In this document: piece by piece, positions 486 to 64,000 of the stretch
How the letters are laid out: every line of letters begins with the position of its first letter
Numbering within the stretch: position 1 is the first letter of the stretch
Source of the DNA: a virus
Reading direction: 5' to 3' (one strand)
DNA length: 64,000 nucleotides
Virus record (IMG/VR): IMGVR_UViG_3300031111_000008
Coordinates: 28,112-92,111 of that record
Translations under genes and position numbers: made by a program
The notes under the pieces: generated by a model
What the model saw: only the letters and a program-made list of their open reading frames with translations
Database searches by the model: none
What the model was told of the DNA's origin: nothing

Positions 486-3035
486 ATGAGTTTTGATCTG
501 GCTCAGGCGTATATCATGATCCGTGCCGACGGGTCTATGATGGTTCATGATTTCAATAAGGCCAAACCCGCCGCCGTTCGGAGTTCCAAAAAACTTGGAA
601 CCACGATGGGTCAGGTAATGAGCCGCGCCTTCGGGGCGGCTGGGGCGTTGGGTGTGGCATTGGCTTACATGAAGATAGCCAGCATGGGCGAGCAGTTTAA
701 CCGCAAAATGCGGAACTCTCTTGCCATTATGGGAGATGTCTCGTCTGCTTTGCGTGGAGACATGGCAAACGCGGCGATGGAAGCTGCCAACGTTACTCAA
801 TTCTCCACTGCCGAAACTGCAAAATCATATTTCTATTTGGCATCTGCGGGTTTGTCTGCTGCCCAATCCGTAAAAGCCATGCCTGCGGTTGCTCAGTTTG
901 CGCAGGCGGGCCTGTTTGATCTTTCGGAGGCCACTACCCTAGCGGCGGATGCGCAGGCTGCTTTGGGAATGAAGTCTAAGGATCCCCAGAAAAATATGGG
1001 AAACATGGTGAGAATTACGGACGTTCTTACCAAAGCTAATACCTTGGCCAACGCTTCTGTTCGTCAGTTTTCTCAATCTCTGACCACCAAAGCCGGTGCC
1101 GCCGCTAAGGTTGCTGGCATGCCTTTGGAAGAGGTCGTGGCTCTCCTGGCGGCCATGGCCGATCAGGGAATCAAAGCCCACGATGCCGGTACTGCCGTAA
1201 ACATTGTCTTGAGAGATTTGAAAACGAAGGCGGTTGAGAATGCAGCGGCGTTCAAGGAATTGAATGTGGCTGTGTACAATTCGGATGGTTCCTTGAGGAA
1301 CATTGCAGATATTATTGGAGACATCGAAAAAGCGATGGAAGGAGCGTCTGCTAGGGAGAAGAATTTGATTTTGAGCCATCTTGGATTTATCGACAAGTCC
1401 AAGATTTTCATTCAATCCATCATCGGCACGTCTGAGAAGATTAGGGATTTTGAAAAAGCGTTGTATGATGCTGGGGGGACGACTAGAGAAGTAGCGGATA
1501 AGCAGTTGACTCCTTTGCAAAAATCAATGGCAAAAATAGGAGTTGCGTTTACACAGGTTGGCCAAGTACTCATGCGAATTGTTGAACCAATGGCCACTGT
1601 ATTAGGTGATAATATCCAAATGATGATAAAGTTGATGGTGGCTTTGAGAGCAGCAACCATGGCTTACAAGTTGGTTGGTCTAGCTATCAAGTATGCCAAG
1701 TTTGAACAGATCGCTTTTATGGCCGTCGAGGCGGCGACAACAGTTTATGCGTCTATTGCTTCTGGAAACATTCTATTGATGAGAAAAGCTCTCTTGCAGG
1801 TTGGAGCAGCCATCGCAGTGGGTACAACTGCCTACTTGGCTATGAACAAAGCTTTTGGAGAAGGCAATACGCAAATAAAAAAGGCAGGCGAAGCTTTTGA
1901 AGAAGGCAGTACGCAAATAGAAAAGGCAGGCTCGGCAGTAAACATGCTTACTGGAGAATATGAAGATCTAAACAAACAGATGAAAAGAAACATCGAGTTG
2001 TCTAAAGAGAAGGCTTCCCTCGATAAAAATTTTAGGGCGTACCTTTTTGGACCTCGTCCAGACACTACTCCACGAGGTCTTGTTTCTCCTAAAGTTTTGC
2101 CAGAGGAAATCAAAGAATCGATGCGACGGGGCAGGGGACGGCGAAGAGAAGCCTTTAGCGATGATCGATCAAGATTGCCTGGTAGGGGTGGATTTATACC
2201 AAAAGGGGAAACTGGACCCGTAGGAAGACTCCCTTGGGAACTGGATCCCAAAACAATGGAAGCTGCTTACAAGGATCTAAAAGGAGTCATGGAGGATATG
2301 AAGACGCCAACCCAAACTTTTTTGGAGTTACAGCAAAAGCTCAACGGCATCATACAAAGAAATCCAGGATTGGTGCAGAATGTCATCAAAGTTTGGAATC
2401 AAGCTAGATCTGAGTTGACGGGCTATAAGGATATGATGCAGGGCATGTCCCATGAGTACATCAAGATGTCAACAGGTATGGGGGATTATGAATTTGAAGC
2501 TCGTCGGTTGATTGGTACATGGGGACATTTGCTTTCAGTGGGAGAAAAGTGGAGATTGTTACAAAGGGCTATCGCGCAAGATGCTTTCTTGGAAAAGAGG
2601 GAGGAAGAGGACGAAGCTGAGAGGGAAGCGGAGCAGAAGAAGAAGCAAGCGGAATCGGAAGCAGAAGCACTGGCTTCCAGGAAGGAGCAGTTTGCAAACA
2701 CATTGAAGTCGGAAAGGGATCTTGTCATGGAGGATTTTGAAAAGATCAAGTATCTGCTGAGAGAGGGAATGATCTCCCCCGAGATGGCTCAACGGGGAGT
2801 TCAGGGTCTTGCAGAAAGAATGAAATCACAAGGCCCCCAAACAACAGAAATTTCTGGCAGGATGGGATATGCGGCTTTCGCAAATTCAATCCAAGACGCC
2901 ATTCTAAAAGACGATACGCCGAAAATGACGCTTGCAGAAGCTCGAAAACACACGACCACTCTTGGTAATTTAGAAACCTTAAATACTAGGATGTTGGAAG
3001 CATTGAATAATAGAGGCGGACTGCGTGAAGAATAA
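486..3035 (+). CDS. phage tail tape measure protein
   Basis: 849 aa, Ala-rich helical; TP901-type core (FSTAETAKSYFYLASAGL, DVLTKANTLAN, DQGIKAHDAGTAV). Confidence 0.92.
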   Translation: MSFDLAQAYIMIRADGSMMVHDFNKAKPAAVRSSKKLGTTMGQVMSRAFGAAGALGVALAYMKIASMGEQFNRKMRNSLAIMGDVSSALRGDMANAAMEAANVTQFSTAETAKSYFYLASAGLSAAQSVKAMPAVAQFAQAGLFDLSEATTLAADAQAALGMKSKDPQKNMGNMVRITDVLTKANTLANASVRQFSQSLTTKAGAAAKVAGMPLEEVVALLAAMADQGIKAHDAGTAVNIVLRDLKTKAVENAAAFKELNVAVYNSDGSLRNIADIIGDIEKAMEGASAREKNLILSHLGFIDKSKIFIQSIIGTSEKIRDFEKALYDAGGTTREVADKQLTPLQKSMAKIGVAFTQVGQVLMRIVEPMATVLGDNIQMMIKLMVALRAATMAYKLVGLAIKYAKFEQIAFMAVEAATTVYASIASGNILLMRKALLQVGAAIAVGTTAYLAMNKAFGEGNTQIKKAGEAFEEGSTQIEKAGSAVNMLTGEYEDLNKQMKRNIELSKEKASLDKNFRAYLFGPRPDTTPRGLVSPKVLPEEIKESMRRGRGRRREAFSDDRSRLPGRGGFIPKGETGPVGRLPWELDPKTMEAAYKDLKGVMEDMKTPTQTFLELQQKLNGIIQRNPGLVQNVIKVWNQARSELTGYKDMMQGMSHEYIKMSTGMGDYEFEARRLIGTWGHLLSVGEKWRLLQRAIAQDAFLEKREEEDEAEREAEQKKKQAESEAEALASRKEQFANTLKSERDLVMEDFEKIKYLLREGMISPEMAQRGVQGLAERMKSQGPQTTEISGRMGYAAFANSIQDAILKDDTPKMTLAEARKHTTTLGNLETLNTRMLEALNNRGGLREE

Positions 3036-8351: not shown

Positions 8352-9033
8352 CAGATTGATGAGAAGATCTGGTACTTCTGCCGTCCACATGAGCAAGCTG
8401 ATTGGTTGGAGACCAAAGACGGTGATTCAAGCTGGTATTGGTTTGAATTGGGAAGAGGTTGATTGTTTTATGGAGCAATGGCCCGACATCCATTTTGAAG
8501 GATTTGAACCCAATCCGTTGTTGATTCGGAAATTGAAGAAGGCTAACTATCCAGGCAACTACTATCCCTACGCCATTGGGGATGCTAAAGGGATTGGAGA
8601 ACTGCGGTATCGACGGAGACACAAAGATGGTTCGTCCCTGAACGATATTGGAGACAAGGAGGATGAACCCACCAAAACTGCTTCGGTGGAAATCGTGACC
8701 TTGGACGAGTTCTTTGCGGGCACAGTTTTTGAGCAGCCAATTCTTCTATGGTTGGATTGCGAAGGGTATGAACTGAAAGCTTTGCGCGGAGCCGAAGCTT
8801 TTCTTGAAGGCGTGGGCATGATCAATGTTGAGATGACAGGAAATCCCAATGGGGAGGGTTGGTGCAAACCTTGGGAAGTGCATCGGTTCATTGTCGATCA
8901 CGGTTTTGTTCTCCAATACATCCACACGTTTCGTAACCACCAAGGGCAGTACGACGGGCTGTACGTACGTCCTTGCATGTTCCATCTCGAATACAGCTGT
9001 TCTCCTTGCAGATGCAAAGATTGTGGGAGCTAG
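8344..9033 (+). CDS. FkbM-family methyltransferase
   Basis: GFEPNP, VTLD, LLWLDCEGYELKALRGA. Confidence 0.85.
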   Translation: MPSRLMRRSGTSAVHMSKLIGWRPKTVIQAGIGLNWEEVDCFMEQWPDIHFEGFEPNPLLIRKLKKANYPGNYYPYAIGDAKGIGELRYRRRHKDGSSLNDIGDKEDEPTKTASVEIVTLDEFFAGTVFEQPILLWLDCEGYELKALRGAEAFLEGVGMINVEMTGNPNGEGWCKPWEVHRFIVDHGFVLQYIHTFRNHQGQYDGLYVRPCMFHLEYSCSPCRCKDCGS

Positions 9034-9034
9034 A

Positions 9035-9607
9035 ATGAGAAAAAAGAAAAAGAAGATTCTTCACCATGAAGTAATCATCAAGTTCCTTCAGCGGGAAGGT
9101 TTTAAGGATGGAGACTTTGTGGGTTGTGAGGTTGGAGTGTTTACATCCAGAACTTCTGTAAATCTACTGGAAGCTTTTCCCAAACTGTTTCTGTACATGG
9201 TAGATCCTTGGGATTCTAATAATACCGAAGGATCTTTGAAAGTTCACCGCACCAAAAGGTTTATGGATACTATTTGCGAAGAGGCTTACCAAAAGACCAA
9301 GTTTGCAAGAAGCAGGCGAGAGATTATGAGGATGGTAAGTGTAGCAGCTTCGCGGGTTGTTGACGACGAATCTTTGGATTTTGTCTTCGTGGATGCTGGA
9401 CATTTTTACAAGCAGACAAAGTCCGACTTGGAAGCTTGGTGGCCAAAAGTAAAGAGTGGTGGTTTTCTCATAGGGCATGATTACAACGGACGCATGGAGA
9501 AGAATGGAATCTGGGGAGTGAAGAAGGCTGCTGATGAGTTCGCTAAGAAAAATGGAGTGGAGATAGAACTGCACGAAGCGTTGATCTTTACCACCAAGAA
9601 ACCATAA
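9035..9607 (+). CDS. class I SAM methyltransferase (Methyltransf_24-like)
   Basis: GCEVGVF, VDPW, DFVFVDAGH, KSGGFLIGHDY. Confidence 0.85.
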   Translation: MRKKKKKILHHEVIIKFLQREGFKDGDFVGCEVGVFTSRTSVNLLEAFPKLFLYMVDPWDSNNTEGSLKVHRTKRFMDTICEEAYQKTKFARSRREIMRMVSVAASRVVDDESLDFVFVDAGHFYKQTKSDLEAWWPKVKSGGFLIGHDYNGRMEKNGIWGVKKAADEFAKKNGVEIELHEALIFTTKKP

Positions 9608-9609
9608 TT

Positions 9610-10524
9610 TTGAGTGTTCCAATGAGATCCCGAGTAGTTTATCTGATGAGCGGTAGTCCGCACTTGCCCTATCTTGTCTGTTCCCTTTGGACGCTGAGAA
9701 AACATTGGGAGGGTAAGCTGACTATCTGTGCTTGGCCCGAGGCTTATGATCTGACGTTACGAATTGCCCAAGACGAAAGACTAGCGGTCTCGGACGTGCG
9801 GGAGAGGGATCCGCAGTTTACAGAACGGAACGGTAGTTGTGTAAATCATTCTCTTGATAAGATCAGGATGATTCAAGAGATGAAGGACAAAACGGATGTT
9901 GTGATGTACATCGATGCTGATACTACAATCCATTACACCATTCAACCCCTGCTGGACATTGGTTTTCAGTATGGTTTTGTGGCTACTCAGTTCAATGATT
10001 GGTTATCCACGGGAAACAAAGCCAGAGGACGCCTGAAGAAGTTTCTAGGCATAGAGGGCATAGATCAGTCAATCGTGCAGTTGATGATGAGGGAACCTTG
10101 GCCTAGCGTCAACAGTGGTGTGTTTGTTGCCCGTCCAGGCTCTCCCGTGCTGGAAACCTACTACAACTATACATACGCAGCCAGGAAGGTTTTCATTGCT
10201 GACGAGACGGCTTTGAATCTCATGCAACCGTTGTACCGTCCTCTGCGGCAATTGGTTACAGTAGGGGATAATGGCAAATGGAACTGCTCTCCGAAGTTCC
10301 AATCCAAAAAGCTTGCCGATGAAGACATTGCAGTACTCCACTTCCACGGCGATTCCTGCGTTCGTCCAGAAAAGAAGAGTCAGAGAGGTTTTGATTTGTG
10401 GTGGCCGATCTATCAAGAGTGCCTCCGAGAAAATGTGGGAGGGATGGCAGAATGGAAAGACTCGATCAGAACCAAATATCTAGGTCCGCTTGAAAAGCAG
10501 TTGGCGGAAGAAGCTTCTGAGTAG
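9610..10524 (+). CDS. GT8-like glycosyltransferase
   Basis: MYIDAD, VNSGVFV, ADETALN, WN, VLHFHG. Confidence 0.75.
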   Translation: MSVPMRSRVVYLMSGSPHLPYLVCSLWTLRKHWEGKLTICAWPEAYDLTLRIAQDERLAVSDVRERDPQFTERNGSCVNHSLDKIRMIQEMKDKTDVVMYIDADTTIHYTIQPLLDIGFQYGFVATQFNDWLSTGNKARGRLKKFLGIEGIDQSIVQLMMREPWPSVNSGVFVARPGSPVLETYYNYTYAARKVFIADETALNLMQPLYRPLRQLVTVGDNGKWNCSPKFQSKKLADEDIAVLHFHGDSCVRPEKKSQRGFDLWWPIYQECLRENVGGMAEWKDSIRTKYLGPLEKQLAEEASE

Positions 10525-10531
10525 AATTTAT

Positions 10532-10869
10532 ATGCCCAAGCCGACGATTGATCAGAGTGAGCACGATTTCCAGTTCACCAAACGCTGGTTTCGTACGTCG
10601 CAAGAGAAAATCGTTTTGGTGTGGGTAGAGGTTCTGTTGATCTGATCATGGTGGATGGACATCACAAAAGCTTTGCTGTCGCTGAGGATGCTAGGATTAG
10701 TTTACGGCTGCTGCGGCAGGGAGGATGGTTGCTGTTTGACGATGTTGAAAACATGCGAAAAAAGAAGGATCATGTAAAGCAAGGAATAGAATTGTTTTTG
10801 TCCAAACATAGTTGCAGGGTAAAACTACTCTGGAAACATCATTTTATGGAGGCATATCAAAAGCTATGA
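10532..10869 (+). pseudogene. methyltransferase with internal deletion and frameshift
   Basis: ATG 10532 gives MPKP..FQFTKRWF; C-terminal DLIMVDGHH..LLRQGGWLLFDD is in a different frame; SAM-binding middle absent. Confidence 0.65.
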
Positions 10870-40361: not shown

Positions 40362-41525
40362 GGAGGGGCTCGGTTGGGTTCGTTCTGTCATGTTGTGTTG
40401 GGGTGAGTTTCGGCCTTCAGCGGCGGGGCAAGTTACGTTTGGTTATGGTAAGGATTTTTAACTTCCAAGCAAACAAATGAGGTAAGTTAAGGCAAGATTC
40501 TTCCAGGTTGATTCCCGTCAAGTTTAGGTCGGTTGTGTTTGGTTCGTGTTGGGTATGTTGTGGTTTGTTGCGATCAGGTAAGGACTTTTTAACTTCCAAG
40601 CAAACAAATGAGGTGATGTCAGGCAAGCCGCGTTATGGTGAGGCGAAATGAGGCACGGCTTGGCGAGTTGGGTTATGTTCAGGCGTGTTTCTACAGGGTT
40701 GGTTCTGTTCAGTTTAGTCATGGCAAGGCAAGGACTTTTCAATTTCCAAGCAAACAACTCTGGTAGGTTTAGTTTTGGTAGTGTAAGGCATAGGTATGGT
40801 GTAGCAGGTTATGTTTGTGTTTGGTTTGTCAAGGTTTGGATGTCGGAATGGGGATTTGAGAATACAAATGAGGCATGGTATGTCGGGTCTGGTTGCGTTG
40901 CGGAATGTTCGGGCTTGTTGCGGCATGTTGGGTTCGGGTATGTTGCGGCGCGGCAAGTTACGGTCAGTCTTGCTTTGCTTAAGGTTGGGTTTGTTAGGGT
41001 AAGGGTTTTAACTTCTAAGCAAACAAACGAGTTAAGTTACGTTGTGTCGTGTTTCGGTTTGGTGTGACATGTTAAGTTACGGTACGTCTTGGTAGATTTC
41101 GGTCTGTTCGGTTCGGTTTAGGCTGGGTTTGGTTCTTTCATGTTCTGTCAAGTTGAGGCAAGGACTTTTTCATTTTCAAGCAGACAAATGAGATTCGGCA
41201 AGGCGGGTTGGGGTTAGTTGGGGCGGTGTTCATTCGGTTACGACAAGGTCGGTTCCGTTGGGTTATGGTAAGGATTTTTAACTTTCAAGAAAACAAATAA
41301 GGCATGTTAGGATTTGTTGGGGAATGTCGTGTCGCGGTGGGTTTTGTTACGGAGTGTCATGTCGCGGTGGGTTTTGTTACGGAGCGTTATGGCAAGGACT
41401 TTTTGAGCAGACAAGCGTGGTGAGGCTAGGAGGGGACGGGCGAGGTAGGATATTTTTTGGCTAGTTTCGGCTCGGCTGGTTGTTTCATGTTCCGTCAAGT
41501 TATGGTAAGGACTTTTTCAAAAATG
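40362..41525 (+). repeat. array of nine units of phased G[G/T][C/T]NN pentamers, each closed by a conserved ~35-nt motif (candidate guide-RNA array)
   Basis: motif GGYAAGGAYTTTT..AYTTCCAAGCAAACAAATGAGG at 40447, 40577, 40727, 40845 (degenerate), 40998, 41157, 41267, 41391, 41504; 5-nt phase in between. Confidence 0.85.
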
Positions 41526-42023
41526 AAATATACAGGAAGACCTTTTGGACTTCATCCTCATCCAGCTCATTGGGAAAAGATCAGGAAACAAGCTCTGAAG
41601 CGGGATGGTTATCAATGCAGACTTTGCAACCATTCTCAGAAGGATGGATACAGGCTTGAATGTCATCATCGGCATTATGAAAATTGGGGCGAAGAGAACC
41701 TTGAAGACGTGACGATGCTTTGTATCGAATGTCACGATCTGATTACAAATTACAATCGAGAGTCTAGGTATGCAGAACGGGAATACTCTATGACTCCTTA
41801 TGTTTCTCCCGTTCATTTACAAGGGGATGAAGATGCGAAAGACGATGAAGATGAAGTGGATCGGACAGTCACCGTTGATTTGCCACAATGGGCAACTAGC
41901 AGACCCGTTAAACGTGTGGTCCCAAAGGATCAAGAAGATCTCGTCAAAATCGAAAAAAACGGAAGCCGATCTGATGGAAATGGGCCATTTGGAGTTTTTA
42001 GGGGGCCTTTACCTGGACAATGA
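41523..42023 (+). CDS. HNH endonuclease
   Basis: RDGYQCRLC..LECHHRHY..EDVTMLCIECH; ATG lies inside the last array motif. Confidence 0.8.
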   Translation: MKYTGRPFGLHPHPAHWEKIRKQALKRDGYQCRLCNHSQKDGYRLECHHRHYENWGEENLEDVTMLCIECHDLITNYNRESRYAEREYSMTPYVSPVHLQGDEDAKDDEDEVDRTVTVDLPQWATSRPVKRVVPKDQEDLVKIEKNGSRSDGNGPFGVFRGPLPGQ

Positions 42024-42465
42024 TGAGGAACCCTGTATTCCAGAATTGTTGATCGAAGCAACTCTTCTAGGAGGAGCAAAAAAATTCAAGGAAGGTCCGA
42101 AAGCAAAAGCTGGAATTTTTGTCATTGCCCCTGCGAAAATCAAGTATGACGGTCCAAAGGACGCGGAAGAACTCTGGGAATCTCCCGATTTCCGTTCCCG
42201 TACTCCGGCCAAGATTGGGCAGAGCAAGGTGATGAGAACTCGCCCAATTTTCCACGAATGGGAAATTGAATTCGAGATAAACTTTGACGATGAGATGCTC
42301 GATGAGGAAAGATTGTTGGAGTGGGCCAAGGCGGCTGGTGCCCAGGTAGGACTTGGTGATTGGCGTCCACGGCATGGAAGATTTTTGGTTAAGGTGGTCG
42401 AAGGAAAGAACGGGAAGTCTGTGATGAGCAAAAAGAAGCGGAGGATGGTAGCGGCGGAAAGCTAG
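41833..42465 (+). CDS. stand-alone RAMP/Cas7-like protein (putative)
   Basis: N-terminal strand + SPLICHN, PCIP..IEATL, RTRP.F.EW, C-terminal Gly-rich loop AGAQVGLGDWRPRHGRF; start approximate (AAGGGG RBS 41821). Confidence 0.6.
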   Translation: MRKTMKMKWIGQSPLICHNGQLADPLNVWSQRIKKISSKSKKTEADLMEMGHLEFLGGLYLDNDEEPCIPELLIEATLLGGAKKFKEGPKAKAGIFVIAPAKIKYDGPKDAEELWESPDFRSRTPAKIGQSKVMRTRPIFHEWEIEFEINFDDEMLDEERLLEWAKAAGAQVGLGDWRPRHGRFLVKVVEGKNGKSVMSKKKRRMVAAES

Positions 42466-42475
42466 GAAATCATTC

Positions 42476-42516
42476 AGGGACGGGGGAATGATTTCGTTCC
42501 CCTGATCCCTCCTTTT
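42476..42516 (+). terminator. terminator-like hairpin after RAMP-like gene
   Basis: AGGGA..GGGGAATG/CGTTCCCC..TCCCT then CCTTTT. Confidence 0.55.
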
Positions 42517-42518
42517 GT

Positions 42519-42590
42519 TAGGAAGCAAAAATGAGAACCCTCCTTATCGTCGATTGTTCCGCAGTTTGTCACAAAGCATTCTCCGGATTC
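42519..42590 (+). repeat. left copy of ~72-bp direct repeat (exonuclease gene start)
   Basis: near-identical to 44972-45044. Confidence 0.9.
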
Positions 42591-42725
42591 GACGGTTCGA
42601 TGGGTACTTTGGTGAAGACTATCGAGGAGGAGGGCAAGGAGAAAGAGTTGCGGGAGATCGTCGGGGATGTCTGGCAGGAGATCGAGAGGTCTTTGCGGGT
42701 GAAGAGGAAAAAGAGGTACGAGTGA
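42531..42725 (+). pseudogene. chimeric ORF beginning with duplicated exonuclease N-terminus
   Basis: MRTLLIVDCSAVC identical to ORF 44985, then unrelated sequence. Confidence 0.7.
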
Positions 42726-42818: not shown

Positions 42819-44246
42819 ATGGGGAAGGAAAAACGAGATAGACCGAAACGGAATATAGGGGTAATAAAATTTGAGATTTTGAAGCCTTTGGGAGGGATGA
42901 CCTGGAAGGAATTGTCGAACATCCTTCGCGACGTTCGTTATAGAACTCAGCGTCTTGCCAACAAGTTTATGAGTGAGAGGTTTTTGGAGGCTAAGCTGCG
43001 CCAGAGTAATCCAGGAAAGGAAATTCCGAAAACGTCCATTGGGGAATTAAACAGAGTTCTTTTGGAGGAATTGATTAAAGAAAAGAAAAAGAAGAGGGAG
43101 GAAGTAAAGGAGTTTTCTAGAGTGGGGGCGTTGTGTTCCACAGTGTATGACGCTCTCCATCAGTATAATTTGTACGCGCTAACTACCAAATCTGCTTGGA
43201 CAAAGGTTTTGCGAGGAGAATCTTCCTTACCAACTTTCAAAAATAACATACCGATACCCATTCGATGTGATGGGGATGGGCGCAAGAGGTTGGCGAGAAG
43301 TTGGCGGGGAGGTGTCGTGCTTCGGTTGATGGTTTGTTTACGTCCATATCCCCGAGTGCTTTTGAAAACAAAGAGATTGAGTGATGGGGCTAAGACTGTT
43401 TTGGAAAGATTGTTGGATAATCCCGACCAGCTGGAAAGTGGTTATCGGCAGCGGGCTTTCGAGGTCAAGTATGACGAGAAGAAGAAAAAGTGGTGGTTGT
43501 ATGTTACTTACGACTTTCCTCCCGAGAAAGTGGAAGTTTCTAAAGACATCGTTGTGGGAGTTGATCTAGGATATGCTTGTCCTGCGTATGCAGCTCTGAG
43601 CAATGGTGAAGCTCGTTTGGGATGGAAAGTTTTTGCGGGGATTGCAGCAAGAGTAAAGCGGATACAAATAATGACTTTTGCCACAAGACGGAACATGTTG
43701 AGGGGAGGAAGATCAAGTTTGTGTGAGGACACGGCCAGAAGTGGGCATGGAAGGAAGAGAAAGTTGAAATGTACAGAAGCTCAGCAAGGAAAGATAAATG
43801 ATGCTTATACAACAATGAACCATCAGATTTCGAGGGCGGTAGTAGATTTTGCTGAGAGAAATCATGCAGGCATAATCCAAGTCGAGGATCTGTCGGGTCT
43901 AGATGATTATCTATCTGGAACATTCTTGGGGGAGAGATGGCGATACTACCAGCTGCAACAATACATCGAATATAAGGCAGAGCAGTGTGGGATTGGGTTT
44001 CGGAAGGTTAATCCTAGGTACACGAGCCGCCGCTGTAGCAAGTGCGGTTATATCAACAATGGGTTTACTAGAAAGTCCAGAGATTCAAATAAAGAGAAGG
44101 GAGGAAAGACTGTCAAGTTCGAGTGTCCCGAGTGTGGACACAAGAGCGATCCAGATTACAATGCCGCTAAGAATTTAACGGTGTTGGGTGTGGATGCTTT
44201 GATTGAGAACCAATGTAAAAAACAAGGAATAGAATTGAGTGTTTGA
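42819..44246 (+). CDS. cas12f: type V-F Cas12f1-like RNA-guided nuclease (475 aa)
   Basis: GGAGG RBS; RuvC-I VGVDLG, RuvC-II IQVEDL, CSKC/CPEC, RuvC-III DPDYNAAKNL; KFEILKPL..WKEL, LRGESSLPTFK, ARSGHGRKRK; adjacent CRISPR array. Confidence 0.85.
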   Translation: MGKEKRDRPKRNIGVIKFEILKPLGGMTWKELSNILRDVRYRTQRLANKFMSERFLEAKLRQSNPGKEIPKTSIGELNRVLLEELIKEKKKKREEVKEFSRVGALCSTVYDALHQYNLYALTTKSAWTKVLRGESSLPTFKNNIPIPIRCDGDGRKRLARSWRGGVVLRLMVCLRPYPRVLLKTKRLSDGAKTVLERLLDNPDQLESGYRQRAFEVKYDEKKKKWWLYVTYDFPPEKVEVSKDIVVGVDLGYACPAYAALSNGEARLGWKVFAGIAARVKRIQIMTFATRRNMLRGGRSSLCEDTARSGHGRKRKLKCTEAQQGKINDAYTTMNHQISRAVVDFAERNHAGIIQVEDLSGLDDYLSGTFLGERWRYYQLQQYIEYKAEQCGIGFRKVNPRYTSRRCSKCGYINNGFTRKSRDSNKEKGGKTVKFECPECGHKSDPDYNAAKNLTVLGVDALIENQCKKQGIELSV

Positions 44247-44454
44247 TATGAGGTCATCAACAATGTCTTTTGTAGTCTACGGACAATCCAAAAGCAGATG
44301 GCTGAAGGCGATCCTGAATCGCCTCAAGGTTGAGAAGGGTTTGGGTAACATGGCAAAAATTGCCTTCCAGATACCGCTCACCAAACAGTTTTCTCATTTT
44401 TTGCCTCAAAAATTTCACCTAAAGACAGCGGGGGGCTTGGTTTGCAGCAAACCT
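44247..44454 (+). ncRNA. tracrRNA candidate / leader
   Basis: CCTAAAGACAG 44418-28 complementary to repeat 3' end CTGTCTTCAGG (1 mismatch); hairpins ~44303-26 and ~44352-64. Confidence 0.6.
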
Positions 44455-44940
44455 GGTGGAGATACCAGTGAAATGAGGACTGTCTTCAGGGATAGGGAAC
44501 GAATACGGGCGGAGGGTGCGGGTGGAGATACCAGTGAAATGAGGACTGTCTTCAGGGTATCGAAAGCCATGGCGGACATCTCCAAGGTGGAGATACCAGT
44601 GAAATGAGGACTGTCTTCAGGGGAAAGCCGTCGATGGTAATTGAAAGCTCTGGTGGAGATACCAGTGAAATGAGGACTGTCTTCAGGACATAGCGTAAAC
44701 CTACGTGCATGATGCGGGGTGGAGATACCAGTGAAATGAGGACTGTCTTCAGGGTTCGTCGGTAACTGTCTGACGGTAAATACGGTGGAGATACCAGTGA
44801 AATGAGGACTGTCTTCAGGGCAAAAGCAACGTGCTGACTATGCGTTGGGGTGGAGATACCAGTGAAATGAGGACTGTCTTTAGGGACTTCAGCGCGTCGA
44901 CTGCGGTGGAGATACCAGTGAAATGAGGACTGTCTTCAGG
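44455..44940 (+). CRISPR. CRISPR array, 8 x 36-nt repeats, 7 spacers
   Basis: GGTGGAGATACCAGTGAAATGAGGACTGTCTTCAGG at 44455, 44521, 44586, 44652, 44718, 44784, 44849 (one C>T), 44905; spacers 30,29,30,30,30,29,20 nt. Confidence 0.97.
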
Positions 44941-44971: not shown

Positions 44972-45044
44972 TAGGAAGCAAAAAATGAGAACCCTCCTTA
45001 TCGTCGATTGTTCCGCAGTTTGTTACAGAGCATTCTTCGGAATC
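44972..45044 (+). repeat. right copy of ~72-bp direct repeat
   Basis: near-identical to 42519-42590. Confidence 0.9.
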
Positions 45045-45827
45045 AAAAATCAGCTCTCACATGAAGACGAGCCAACCGCTGTCATCTACGGCTTCTTGAC
45101 TCAGCTTCTAGCCATCAAGGAAGATTTCTACGCGGACGGAGTCGTATTCACGTTCGACTACGGCAGAAGCCTGCGCCGGGAAGTCTATCCTAACTACAAA
45201 TCCTCTCGCAGGACAAAGAGGAAAGAGCAATCTATAGAGGACAAGATCCTCTTCAGCCAGCTTCAAGCCCAGATGTACCAACTCAGGACGGAGATCCTTC
45301 CTGAAATGGGGTACAAGAACGTCTTCTTCCAGAAAGGCTACGAAGCTGATGATGTCATAGCCTCTCTCTGCCATAATTCTTTGGCGAAGGACGAGTACGC
45401 AATCGTCGTCTCGAACGACGAGGACTTGTTCCAGCTACTCACAAAACGGATTTCGATTTGGAATCCCTCTTCCCACAAACGCATTACCCTGAAGTCCTTT
45501 CAAAAGCAGTATCGAATCTCAGCGCCGCAGTGGGCGGACGTGAAAGCGATTGCTGGTTGTGATACGGATGACGTGGCAGGTGTGGCAGGCGTCGGCAACA
45601 TCACGGCCTGCAAGTTCCTCGGCGGGATTCTTAAGCCGACGACAAAAGCCCACAAGAAGATCGTCGAAAGTAGAAACCTTTGGGACAGGAACCTCCCATT
45701 AGTGAAGCTTCCTTACGAGGGAACGGAGACGTTCGTGATCCAAGAGGACAAGATCAAACAGAAGAAGTGGGATCAGATGATGGAGAAGTACGGCATGGAG
45801 AGCTTGAAGGGCGAAACCCCGTTGTGA
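44985..45827 (+). CDS. 5'-3' exonuclease/flap endonuclease (T4 RNase H-like)
   Basis: LLIVD, YPNYK, GYEADDVI, SNDEDLFQL, GCDTDDVAGV.GVG. Confidence 0.92.
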   Translation: MRTLLIVDCSAVCYRAFFGIKNQLSHEDEPTAVIYGFLTQLLAIKEDFYADGVVFTFDYGRSLRREVYPNYKSSRRTKRKEQSIEDKILFSQLQAQMYQLRTEILPEMGYKNVFFQKGYEADDVIASLCHNSLAKDEYAIVVSNDEDLFQLLTKRISIWNPSSHKRITLKSFQKQYRISAPQWADVKAIAGCDTDDVAGVAGVGNITACKFLGGILKPTTKAHKKIVESRNLWDRNLPLVKLPYEGTETFVIQEDKIKQKKWDQMMEKYGMESLKGETPL

Positions 45828-53362: not shown

Positions 53363-54432
53363 TTTAACTCCAGAGTCGTTTTTCTTTCTGCGCTGGTTAG
53401 TATGGTGGAAGATTTTTCAATACGCACTATGACAATAGAATCATCTTGTGGCATTGGTGGTTCTGCGAAACTCTTGAAGATGATTACAGATTGATCTTTG
53501 CATTCTTTCACGGTGGCCGAATCGAAAGCCCACACGGTAGCCGAGTTGTAAGCCTCTACGGTAGCCGAGTTGTAAGCCGTCACGGTAGCCGAGTTGTAAG
53601 CCCTTACGGTAGCCGAGTTGTAAGCCTCTACGGTAGCCGAGTTGTAAGCCTCTACGGTAGCCGAGTTGTAAGCCTCTACGGTAGCCGAGTTGTAAGCCTC
53701 TACGGTAGCCGAGCCGGAAGCCGTCACGGTAGCCGAATCAAAAGCCCACACGGTAGCCGAGCCGTAAGCCTCTACGGTAGCCGAGCCGCAAGCCGTCACG
53801 GTGGCCGAATCGCGAGCCCTCACGGTAGCCGAGCCGTAAGCCTTTACGGTAGCCGAGTTGCAAGCCGTCACGGTGGCCGAATCGCGAGCCCTCACGGTAG
53901 CCGAGCCGCAAGCCTCTACGGTAGCCGAGCCGCAAGCCCTCACGGTAGCCGAATCGTAAGCCGTCACGATGGTCGAGCCGGAAGCGTGTACGGTAGCCGA
54001 GTCGGAAGCCCATACGGTAGCCGAATCGTAAGCCGTCACGGTAGCCGAGCCGGAAGCGTGTACGGTAGCCGAGTCGGAAGCCGTCACGGTGACCGAGCCT
54101 ACAGCGTATACCTCTCCTTCCTTAACCTCTCTTTTTCCTTCTCTGATGATTTTCTTCTCGGCCCAATCGACCAGCCCCAACCTGGTGCGGCGTTCGATGT
54201 CTCGTACGCCCGCCCAGTCTGGGAGGATGTCTTGATCGAGTTGAAAGTTCCACTCGTCAAGAGGTTTTGAGAAGTCTTTTTCGGGCGGCGTAATCTCCAC
54301 GCGGACGATATTCGGACCCCGAACTCCGTCTGCGTTTAGAGAATGCTCGTCGATGATGTCTTCGTGAGAATCTGTTTTGACCGACCAAAAGATCTTATCT
54401 TTTGTCAGAACGAAAGAGGCTGGTTGACACAT
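53359..54432 (-). CDS. 8-aa repeat (A-x-x-SATV-x) solenoid protein, copy A
   Basis: ~24 tandem 24-nt repeats; N-terminus shared with copy B. Confidence 0.8.
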   Translation of the reverse strand: MCQPASFVLTKDKIFWSVKTDSHEDIIDEHSLNADGVRGPNIVRVEITPPEKDFSKPLDEWNFQLDQDILPDWAGVRDIERRTRLGLVDWAEKKIIREGKREVKEGEVYAVGSVTVTASDSATVHASGSATVTAYDSATVWASDSATVHASGSTIVTAYDSATVRACGSATVEACGSATVRARDSATVTACNSATVKAYGSATVRARDSATVTACGSATVEAYGSATVWAFDSATVTASGSATVEAYNSATVEAYNSATVEAYNSATVEAYNSATVRAYNSATVTAYNSATVEAYNSATVWAFDSATVKECKDQSVIIFKSFAEPPMPQDDSIVIVRIEKSSTILTSAERKTTLELK

Positions 54433-60370: not shown

Positions 60371-61422
60371 TCAACCATTGTCAATTTTGCCGATAGCCCC
60401 TGTGTGCTACGGAAAATTTCAACTTCGTTTGTTCGATAGACAAGAACGTTTGAATCATCTTGTGGCTTTGGTGGTTTTGTTGAACTCTTGAAGACAATTA
60501 CAGATTGATCTTTGCACTCTTTTACGGTAGCCGAGCCGCAAGCCGTCACGGTGGCCGAATCGCGAGCCCTCACGGTAGCCGAGCCGTAAGCCTGCACGGT
60601 AGCCGAATCGCGAGCCCTTACGGTAGCCGAGTCGAAAGCCCGCACGGTAGCCGAGTCGAAAGCCTTTACGGTAGCCGAGTCGAAAGCCCGCACGGTAGCC
60701 GAATCAAAAGCCCACACGGTAGCCGAGCCGTAAGCCCTCACGGTAGCCGAGCCGTAAGCCCGCACGGTAGCCGAGTCGAAAGCCCGCACGGTAGCCGAAT
60801 CGCGAGCCCTCACGGTAGCCGAGCCGGAAGCCGTCACGGTAGCCGAGTTGCAAGCCCGCACGGTAGCCGAATCGCGAGCCGTCACGGTGGCCGAGCCGGA
60901 AGCCCTCACGGTAGCCGAGTTGCAAGCCGTCACGGTGGCCGAATCGCAAGCCGTCACGGTGGCCGAGTTGTGAGCCCGCACGATGGCCAAATCGCGAGCC
61001 CATACGGTAGCCGAATCGTAAGCCGTCACGGTAGCCGAGCCGGAAGCGTGTACGGTAGCCGAGTCGGAAGCCGTCACGGTGACCGAGCCTACAGCGTATA
61101 CCTCTCCTTCCTTAACCTCTCTTTTTCCTTCTCTGATGATTTTCTTCTCGGCCCAATCGACCAGCCCCAACCTGGTGCGGCGTTCGATGTCTCGTACGCC
61201 CGCCCAGTCTGGGAGGATGTCTTGATCGAGTTGAAAGTTCCACTCGTCAAGAGGTTTTGAGAAGTCTTTTTCGGGCGGCGTAATCTCCACGCGGACGATA
61301 TTCGGACCCCGAACTCCGTCTGCGTTCAGAGAATGCTCGTCGATGATGTCTTCGTGAGAATCTGTTTTGACCGACCAAAAGATCTTATCTTTTGTCAGAA
61401 CGAAAGAGGCTGGTTGACACAT
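60367..61422 (-). CDS. 8-aa repeat solenoid protein, copy B
   Basis: starts MCQPASF as copy A; ~24 repeats. Confidence 0.8.
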   Translation of the reverse strand: MCQPASFVLTKDKIFWSVKTDSHEDIIDEHSLNADGVRGPNIVRVEITPPEKDFSKPLDEWNFQLDQDILPDWAGVRDIERRTRLGLVDWAEKKIIREGKREVKEGEVYAVGSVTVTASDSATVHASGSATVTAYDSATVWARDLAIVRAHNSATVTACDSATVTACNSATVRASGSATVTARDSATVRACNSATVTASGSATVRARDSATVRAFDSATVRAYGSATVRAYGSATVWAFDSATVRAFDSATVKAFDSATVRAFDSATVRARDSATVQAYGSATVRARDSATVTACGSATVKECKDQSVIVFKSSTKPPKPQDDSNVLVYRTNEVEIFRSTQGLSAKLTMVD

Positions 61423-63824: not shown

Positions 63825-64000
63825 GTCGACCTTCGAGTGGCTCATCGTGGCCCAGGTCGCTGCCGAGAGGCCCGTCGACCTTCGAGTGGCTCATCGTGGC
63901 CCAGGTCGCTGCCGAGAGGCCCGTCGACCTTCGAGTGGCTCATCGTGGCCCAGGTCGCTGCCGAGAGGCCCGTCGACCTTCGAGTGGCTCATCGTGGCCC
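63825..64000. repeat. perfect 49-bp tandem repeat, 3.6 copies, runs off window
   Basis: GTCGACCTTCGAGTGGCTCATCGTGGCCCAGGTCGCTGCCGAGAGGCCC at 63825, 63874, 63923, 63972. Confidence 0.95.

Follow-up and report, generated by a model that had tools for sequence, protein, structure and literature searches.

The locus described here lies in a 64,000-nt stretch of viral DNA (hereafter the window) that corresponds to bases 28112-92111 of the 92,111-bp IMG/VR virus record IMGVR_UViG_3300031111_000008, whose estimated completeness is 97%. It comprises a cas12f gene, a downstream CRISPR (clustered regularly interspaced short palindromic repeat) array and, in the gap between them, a predicted trans-activating CRISPR RNA (tracrRNA), all on the same strand (Table 1). 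The carrier was confirmed as a tailed phage by PHROG matches to a tape measure protein, helicases, DnaB, a DNA polymerase, a UvsX-like recombinase, a FEN-type exonuclease and a RuvC-like resolvase. A preliminary description of the window had reported a 475-aa RuvC protein with three acidic motifs and a zinc finger, followed 208 nt later by eight 36-nt repeats with unique spacers, and both observations were confirmed. Translation from the ATG at 42819 gives the 475-aa product, and a GGAGG precedes this start codon by about 9 nt; an alternative TTG start six codons upstream (42801) would give 481 aa. The gene stops at 44244-44246 and the first repeat begins at 44455, leaving a gap of 208 nt.

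The 36-nt repeat (GGTGGAGATACCAGTGAAATGAGGACTGTCTTCAGG) was exact in seven of its eight copies, the seventh carrying a single C>T change at 44881, and no such repeats were found in 100 shuffles. The seven spacers were all different and measured, from first to last, 30, 29, 30, 30, 30, 29 and 20 nt. The mutated seventh repeat and the short seventh spacer mark the old end of the array.

Table 1 Features of the Cas12f locus and its borders in the phage window
Feature	Position	Strand	Description
Left duplication copy	42527..42590	+	Duplicated 64-nt start of the exonuclease gene; shares 94% identity with 44981-45044, first 43 nt identical
Chimeric 64-aa ORF	42531..42725	+	Exonuclease-like N-terminus, recombinase-like remainder
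cas12f	42819..44246	+	475 aa; type V-F1 (AsCas12f-like) RNA-guided nuclease, assigned by Pfam, NCBIfam, phmmer, AlphaFold2/Foldseek and residue conservation
tracrRNA (predicted)	44250..44402	+	About 153 nt; five-stem structured RNA ending in a T-run
Hairpin-loop anti-repeat CCTGAA	44313..44318	+	Loop of stem 3, complementary to TTCAGG, the final 6 nt of the repeat; contact of pseudoknot type
3'-tail anti-repeat ACAG-TTTT-CTCATTT	44385..44399	+	Pairs with repeat positions ~17-29 (AAATGAG-GA-CTGT)
Leader	44403..44454	+	52 nt between tracrRNA and array; poorly conserved in the alignment of relatives
CRISPR array	44455..44940	+	Eight repeats of 36 nt, seven spacers
Spacer 1	44491..44520	+	Leader-proximal and newest; perfect protospacer in a foreign phage contig
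Right duplication copy	44981..45044	+	True start of the FEN-type exonuclease gene (44985-45827)

The compact type V-F affinity proposed in the preliminary description, with AsCas12f1 as the example, was supported by sequence, structure and phylogeny. The protein possessed the motifs VGVDLG (D249), QVEDLS (E356) and DPDYNAAKN (D446), as well as CSKCG/CPECG, GHGRKRK and EILKPL..WKEL. The RuvC triad D249/E356/D446 aligned to the AsCas12f motifs and was conserved in 24-25 of 25 homologues, and the zinc ribbon (C406/C409/C436/C439, CCCC) was intact and invariant or nearly so in the same set. The Pfam domain Cas12f1-like_TNB was matched at E = 1e-21 (PF07282; 77 bits against a cut-off of 26). The only NCBIfam model passed was that of the superfamily, guided_TnpB (131 bits, cut-off 100). 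Cas12f2 (NF049972) was rejected with 86.8 bits against a cut-off of 450 and a match to the C-terminal half only, and the IS200_TnpB model scored 51 against a cut-off of 425. A phmmer search of the PDB aligned residues 13-465 to AsCas12f (8j1j, 8j12, 8dzj, 7wju) at E-values from 1e-52 to 6e-51, taking in the N-terminal EI.KPL..WKE and GHGR segments.

The AlphaFold2 model built with 25 homologues had a mean predicted local distance difference test score of 82.9, and its Foldseek matches were led by AsCas12f (8dzj/8j12/7wju, 2.6e-32), then Sp, Os, Un1, Al3 and CnCas12f, with ISDra2 TnpB at 3.4e-14. Global TM-scores against the solved structures were modest (0.41-0.48), which in our reading may reflect a different domain arrangement in a free model and in structures bound to RNA and DNA. 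The Cas12f TNB domain occurred once in the whole phage record, and the gene was single-copy in each of five host genomes. The protein is a full-length AsCas12f-type homologue of type V-F1 and not a TnpB borne by an insertion sequence (IS). It belongs to a CRISPR-associated clade (see below), is present in a single copy and has no adjoining transposase or IS ends. An IS200/IS605-borne TnpB was also considered from the neighbouring open reading frames (ORFs), a scar ORF and an exonuclease, and rejected as there was no transposase or IS end beside the gene, although no TnpA hidden Markov model (HMM) was run.

The preliminary description had given the 208 nt between gene and array as plain spacing; the length was correct, and the gap encodes a predicted tracrRNA. 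An alignment and a covariance model were built from the gene-to-array gaps of 20 loci, and the alignment revealed a conserved element of about 153 nt ending in a T-run, followed by a non-conserved leader. RNAalifold placed 37 pairs in five stems, with compensatory changes at 26 pairs, and the phage copy folded alone reproduced the stems (z = -2.05). The covariance model gave a single match in the window (44237-44404, 121.7 bits). In nine clade loci outside its building set it also matched, at 87-150 bits, the sequence immediately following the gene; weaker matches (14-30 bits) were found at a like position by Bacillota and some viral Cas12f genes. No Rfam family was matched by the 208-nt gap or by the array.

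The identification as a tracrRNA follows from the loop and the 3' tail: both complement the repeat, and both vary in step with it from one locus to another. Pairing between the loop of stem 3 and the repeat averaged 5.8 bp for cognate combinations and 4.1 bp for non-cognate ones (permutation p < 1e-4). Column counts gave 77% paired versus 66% after shuffling (0/500), with 10 and 6 double changes at two of the pairs; in other loci the matched loop and repeat segments read CTCGAA/TTCGAG, CTGTTT/AAACAG, CCTGCT/AGCAGG and CCTGCGT/ACGCAGG. The duplex between tail and repeat had a mean energy of -15.1 kcal/mol for cognate and -9.8 kcal/mol for non-cognate combinations (permutation p < 1e-4). Duplex energies of the whole gap with the repeat did not separate the strands, whereas the loop- and tail-specific tests did. 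The repeat alone was not notably structured (z = -0.35), which fits a dependence on a tracrRNA, and the C>T change of the seventh repeat falls on a position of the loop pairing where a G-U pair is still possible.

The preliminary description had also named an omega-type RNA as the alternative to array-derived guides. Such a single RNA with a fused 3' guide was rejected, as the scaffold RNA ends in a T-run and is followed by the 52-nt leader and a separate seven-spacer array.

Two further sequence elements were observed on either side of the predicted tracrRNA. Just 5' of its first stem, many clade members shared the motif (G)CTCTTTGACAAT (for example L009:10167-10180, L014:2720-2732 and L028:11394-11406), present in a weaker form at 44238-44249 of the window; it resembles a -35 box, yet its spacing would place the transcription start inside stem 1. 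In the leader, positions 44418-44428 (CCTAAAGACAG) complemented the final 11 nt of the variant seventh repeat (CTGTCTTTAGG) without a mismatch, and the canonical repeat at 10 of 11 positions, with no counterpart seen in the leaders of relatives. This element could be a second anti-repeat, a remnant or a product of chance (rough chance estimate < 1e-3).

The protein database contained 769 homologues of the phage protein at E < 1e-10, the best being 58% identical and those listed measuring about 450-510 aa; the few named ones came from Planctomycetia, Phycisphaerae and Pirellulales metagenome-assembled genomes. Among contigs from one genome per species, about 30 loci were found at 44-56% identity, nearly all from Planctomycetota, while the Bacillota Cas12f genes, one of them from Sulfoacidibacillus, were 25-31% identical to the phage protein. 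The nearest other viral copy in IMG/VR reached only 31% identity, and the phage is thus the sole viral carrier of the Planctomycetota clade in that database; further IMG/VR contigs carried more distant Cas12f genes with arrays.

A phylogeny with Cas12f and TnpB had been proposed in the preliminary description. In a maximum-likelihood tree of 63 rows, with haloarchaeal TnpB-like proteins as the root, the phage protein did not group with IS-borne TnpB but fell within a 24-row, mostly Planctomycetota, CRISPR-associated clade (Shimodaira-Hasegawa-like approximate likelihood ratio test, SH-aLRT, 100), apart from the Bacillota AsCas12f-like clade. Inside it, the protein belonged to a 15-row subclade (97) and was weakly sister to a Phycisphaeraceae sequence (86). 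Based on a repeat finder, the gene was followed in about 19 clade loci, at a distance of 120-250 nt, by an array of ~36-nt repeats on the same strand, and the clade repeats shared the form G[GCT]TG...CAGG with that of the phage. Nearly all members of the clade have this order of gene, interval of about 200 nt and array. The phage host is probably a member of the Planctomycetota, as suggested by the Cas12f clade together with the habitat.

Adaptation genes were reported as absent from the window, and the search was extended to the entire 92,111-bp record: HMMs for Cas1, Cas2 and Cas4 gave no match in either. The preliminary description had seen in this a minimal phage system. The absence held, and phage-specific streamlining did not: in the bacterial relatives examined the adaptation genes were not adjacent either (in five host genomes cas1 lay on other contigs), and the greater Cas12f branch is described as associated with arrays, located downstream, and not with Cas1, Cas2 or Cas4 (PMC10691335). 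The absence of cas1, cas2 and cas4 is therefore a trait of the clade. Three Planctomycetota genomes with a Cas12f module (L181, L182, L183; G005, G001, G003) also possessed Cas1-linked arrays with 36-nt repeats. These repeats have the length of the V-F repeats and an unrelated sequence, which speaks neither for nor against adaptation in trans.

The preliminary description had inferred a role against competing elements, and the targets of the spacers were searched. A 22-nt seed of spacer 1 was looked up in JGI metagenome contigs and the match then extended, giving a 30/30 match to positions 1242-1271(-) of the 1,944-bp contig Ga0272444_10127115 (L177), for which the chance expectation of a full 30-mer match was estimated by us at about 1e-6. 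No repeats adjoin this protospacer. The ORF that contains it (79 aa) is located just upstream of a gene for a portal protein (phrog_2662, 2.7e-40). The target is a different tailed phage, because its portal is only 29% identical to that of the carrier phage. On the spacer-sense strand, the 5' flank of the protospacer reads ...GTCGTTGCCCGA and the 3' flank GCATACGC.

A single public run contained the carrier phage (X1, a marine sediment metagenome), and contigs of this run had loose ends at 44491 and 44521 that showed exactly the two protospacer flanks. The CRISPR-bearing phage and its target phage therefore occur together, in a run that is possibly the source sample of both contigs, so that this is co-occurrence and not independent replication. 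The anti-competitor role put forward earlier thus gained a perfect foreign-phage target from the same run; of the proposed spacer search for targets and a 5' protospacer adjacent motif (PAM), one target with its flank was obtained, and the remaining spacers returned none. One of seven spacers matched a foreign phage contig and none matched the carrier, the longest exact spacer match in its own genome being 13 nt, as expected of CRISPR carried by mobile genetic elements in inter-element conflict. The 22-nt seeds of spacers 1-5 had no match in IMG/VR. The 446 spacers of relatives searched against the phage, and the phage spacers searched against all fetched loci, gave only chance matches of 13-17 nt, and the repeat was absent from the other IMG/VR contigs and the JGI metagenome contigs searched.

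The cassette lies between the recombinase and exonuclease genes, an interval of 4.6 kb in this phage. In a distantly related phage (L174:8879-10864) the recombinase (8879-9973) directly abuts the exonuclease (9974-10864), and two others (L175:7502-10849 and L176) have about 1.4 kb of cargo in the same junction, including a VWA-domain protein and a PDDEXK endonuclease. Judged from these gene orders, the junction is a site of variable cargo in related phages. The first ~20 residues of the chimeric ORF at the left border copy the exonuclease (16/24 identical by BLASTP), and its remainder resembles the C-terminal ~47 aa of the recombinase (38% identity, E = 4e-8, residues 310-364). It is probably a recombination scar brought in with the cassette. 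In the simplest reading, the cassette appears to have come by recombination from a phage already carrying it between recombinase and exonuclease, since a diverged recombinase 3' end came along with it.

Directly upstream of the cassette, 40362-42516 contained 14 runs (5-13 units) of phased G[GT][CT]NN pentamers, compared with two elsewhere in the window, and in the same segment the pentamers are followed by an ORF in which an HNH-like motif was seen (41457-42023) and by a gene matching phrog_4652 (41800-42465). This pentamer array would be VIPR-like, in which case two RNA-guided systems would be stacked in one slot; the action proposed for VIPR is against competing phages (VIPR preprint, 2026). 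Elsewhere in the window, 24-nt tandem repeats of a similar unit were found at 53507-54097 and 60524-61087 (about 24 copies each, ~80% matches), probably encoding repeats inside minus-strand genes, and a perfect 49-nt tandem repeat (3.6 copies) at 63825-64000 reaches the window and contig end and may be a terminal-repeat or assembly feature.

By analogy with characterized relatives, cas12f would encode a 475-aa nuclease, and the tracrRNA would pair with the 3' ~20 nt of the repeat through two contacts, loop CCUGAA with UUCAGG and tail ACAG..CUCAUUU with AAAUGAG..CUGU. The duplex of tracrRNA and CRISPR RNA (crRNA) would load Cas12f, probably as a dimer as in the solved AsCas12f and Un1Cas12f complexes, and the complex would cut double-stranded DNA matching the spacer beside a 5' PAM, as expected from homology to the same two enzymes. 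That the RNAs are expressed and processed is predicted in this way, as are cleavage and the PAM. The purpose may be the exclusion of rival phages during co-infection, and spacers may be gained through host Cas1-Cas2 acting in trans or by recombination.

Among known systems, AsCas12f1 of Acidibacillus/Sulfoacidibacillus sulfuroxidans (type V-F1, formerly V-U3; 7WJU, 8DZJ, 8J12) is comparable: the homology extends over the full length (E = 1e-52), the domains follow in the same order, and the RuvC triad (D-E-D), the zinc ribbon of the TNB (CCCC) and the segments EI.KPL..WKE and GHGR.KR recur. Its locus is likewise made of effector, tracrRNA and downstream array without cas1, cas2 or cas4, and its tracrRNA contacts the repeat through a loop and a 3' tail. 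The phage protein differs in being only ~27-35% identical, about 50 aa longer, placed in a separate, mostly Planctomycetota clade and phage-borne, and the repeats of its clade measure 36 nt (G[GCT]TG...CAGG) instead of ~29 nt. The single protospacer flank of the phage system, CCCGA, is also unlike the NTTR PAM of AsCas12f. Un1Cas12f1 (Cas14a1; 7C7L, 7L48) is likewise a miniature Cas12f dependent on a tracrRNA, but is more distant (E = 1e-25, C-terminal half only), of archaeal (DPANN) origin, and Cas14a loci possess cas1, cas2 and cas4. In the single-guide RNAs (sgRNAs) of Un1Cas12f and AsCas12f, a hairpin loop presumably pairs with the last repeat bases and a tail forms a second anti-repeat, resembling the phage tracrRNA.

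The IS200/IS605 TnpB with its omega RNA (ISDra2, 8H1J) shares the ancestral fold, a non-coding RNA gene directly downstream of the nuclease gene and a pass with the guided_TnpB model. In contrast to TnpB, the phage gene is single-copy with no transposase or IS ends alongside, its guides are supplied by an array of several spacers together with a separate tracrRNA, and TnpB is a far weaker fold match to its protein (1e-14 versus 1e-32). Virus-encoded CRISPR systems and mini-arrays act in inter-virus competition and are rare in phages below 200 kb (review PMC11656645), and Cas12f-clade proteins occur in huge phages (PMC11748809). The present locus resembles these in being phage-borne, in lacking an adaptation module and in having a spacer against another virus, and differs from them in its 92-kb carrier, which is below 200 kb, in possessing its own effector and tracrRNA instead of relying on host Cas proteins, and in adjoining a VIPR-like system.

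Taken together, the locus is very probably a type V-F1 CRISPR-Cas module, complete and probably active, of a tailed phage from marine sediment, with a probable Planctomycetota host, used against rival phages. Several results weigh against this interpretation. A target is known for only one of seven spacers, and the PAM rests on one protospacer flank (...TTGCCCGA). Searches of the array against INPHARED phages gave only chance-level matches (E >= 0.5), those against PLSDB plasmids nothing, and those against 401 sampled Planctomycetota genomes again chance-level matches only (best per-genome E = 0.003). Consensus scans around the tracrRNA and the array gave neither a promoter nor an intrinsic terminator (the one sigma-70-like site detected by such a scan, at 44135-44162, lies inside the 3' end of cas12f and is uninformative). 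No route of spacer gain was found, the Cas1-linked arrays in the three host genomes having a different repeat sequence. Lastly, the 43-nt exact duplication at both cassette ends exceeds typical assembly k-mers, and the placement of the cassette depends on its correct resolution in the original assembly.

The last point bears on the possibility that the 43-nt exact repeat led the assembly to fuse a V-F locus of bacterial origin with the phage contig. The repeats do flank the cassette, and Logan contigs break at them, none spanning the cassette with both flanks; however, the cassette contig has a depth of 120, close to the 137-160 of the phage contigs beside it, and the sequence on either side derives from phage (a recombinase-tail remnant and an exonuclease start), which would be hard to explain for an insert from a bacterial chromosome, so that an assembly chimera seems hardly credible. 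The bracketing of the cassette by the duplication and the scar ORF, together with its truncated last spacer and mutated seventh repeat, would also suit an inert passenger or decaying relic, acquired by recombination and out of use. Such a loss of function is very improbable given an intact reading frame with every conserved residue kept, a tracrRNA that still scores 121.7 bits against the family model, the G-U pair still permitted by the changed repeat, and a leader-proximal spacer that perfectly matches a phage of the same sample, which implies recent gain or selection.

Targets in host defence genes or in the host chromosome, as in Vibrio phage ICP1, would make the system mainly one of counter-defence, and six of seven spacers leave room for such targets. 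This appears improbable: the one target identified belongs to a phage contig and adjoins a portal gene, the chance-level result with the 401 Planctomycetota genomes speaks against host targets, and with an intact catalytic triad the cutting of the host chromosome would kill the host. Silencing of target transcription or replication by binding without cutting has precedents among nuclease-dead Cas12f relatives (PDB 9n9c, dCas12f; PMC10691335). There is little to recommend it here, as the protein retains D249, E356, D446 and the zinc ribbon, all of them conserved across its clade, and the nearest solved relatives are active nucleases.

A broader reading, which we regard as speculative and rather unlikely, extends the anti-rival module to the whole 4.6-kb stretch. 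This would be a mobile 'RNA-guided anti-rival island', combining two unrelated programmable systems, the VIPR-like array with its HNH ORF and Cas12f with its tracrRNA and array, and moving as cassettes between phages by recombination at the gene junction. Its Cas12f array would still be gaining spacers, as the perfect match to a co-occurring phage suggests, without a Cas1-Cas2 of its own, through a host complex working on 36-nt repeats or through a recombination-based route.

Phage CRISPR systems, including those of the Cas12f clade, have already been described (PMC11656645, PMC11748809), and the present locus is of a known kind. It lies in a phage of ordinary size for which the nuclease, the helper RNA, the guides and a natural target can all be named from sequence. 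With a defined protospacer and flank, the idea of phage-versus-phage CRISPR becomes directly testable. The locus also draws attention to Cas12f nucleases of ~450-510 aa that form a large and uncharacterised clade, found mostly in Planctomycetota, whose tracrRNA is now defined sufficiently for the design of sgRNAs. Its setting next to a VIPR-like system points to phages accumulating several programmable weapons against rivals in a single exchangeable slot.

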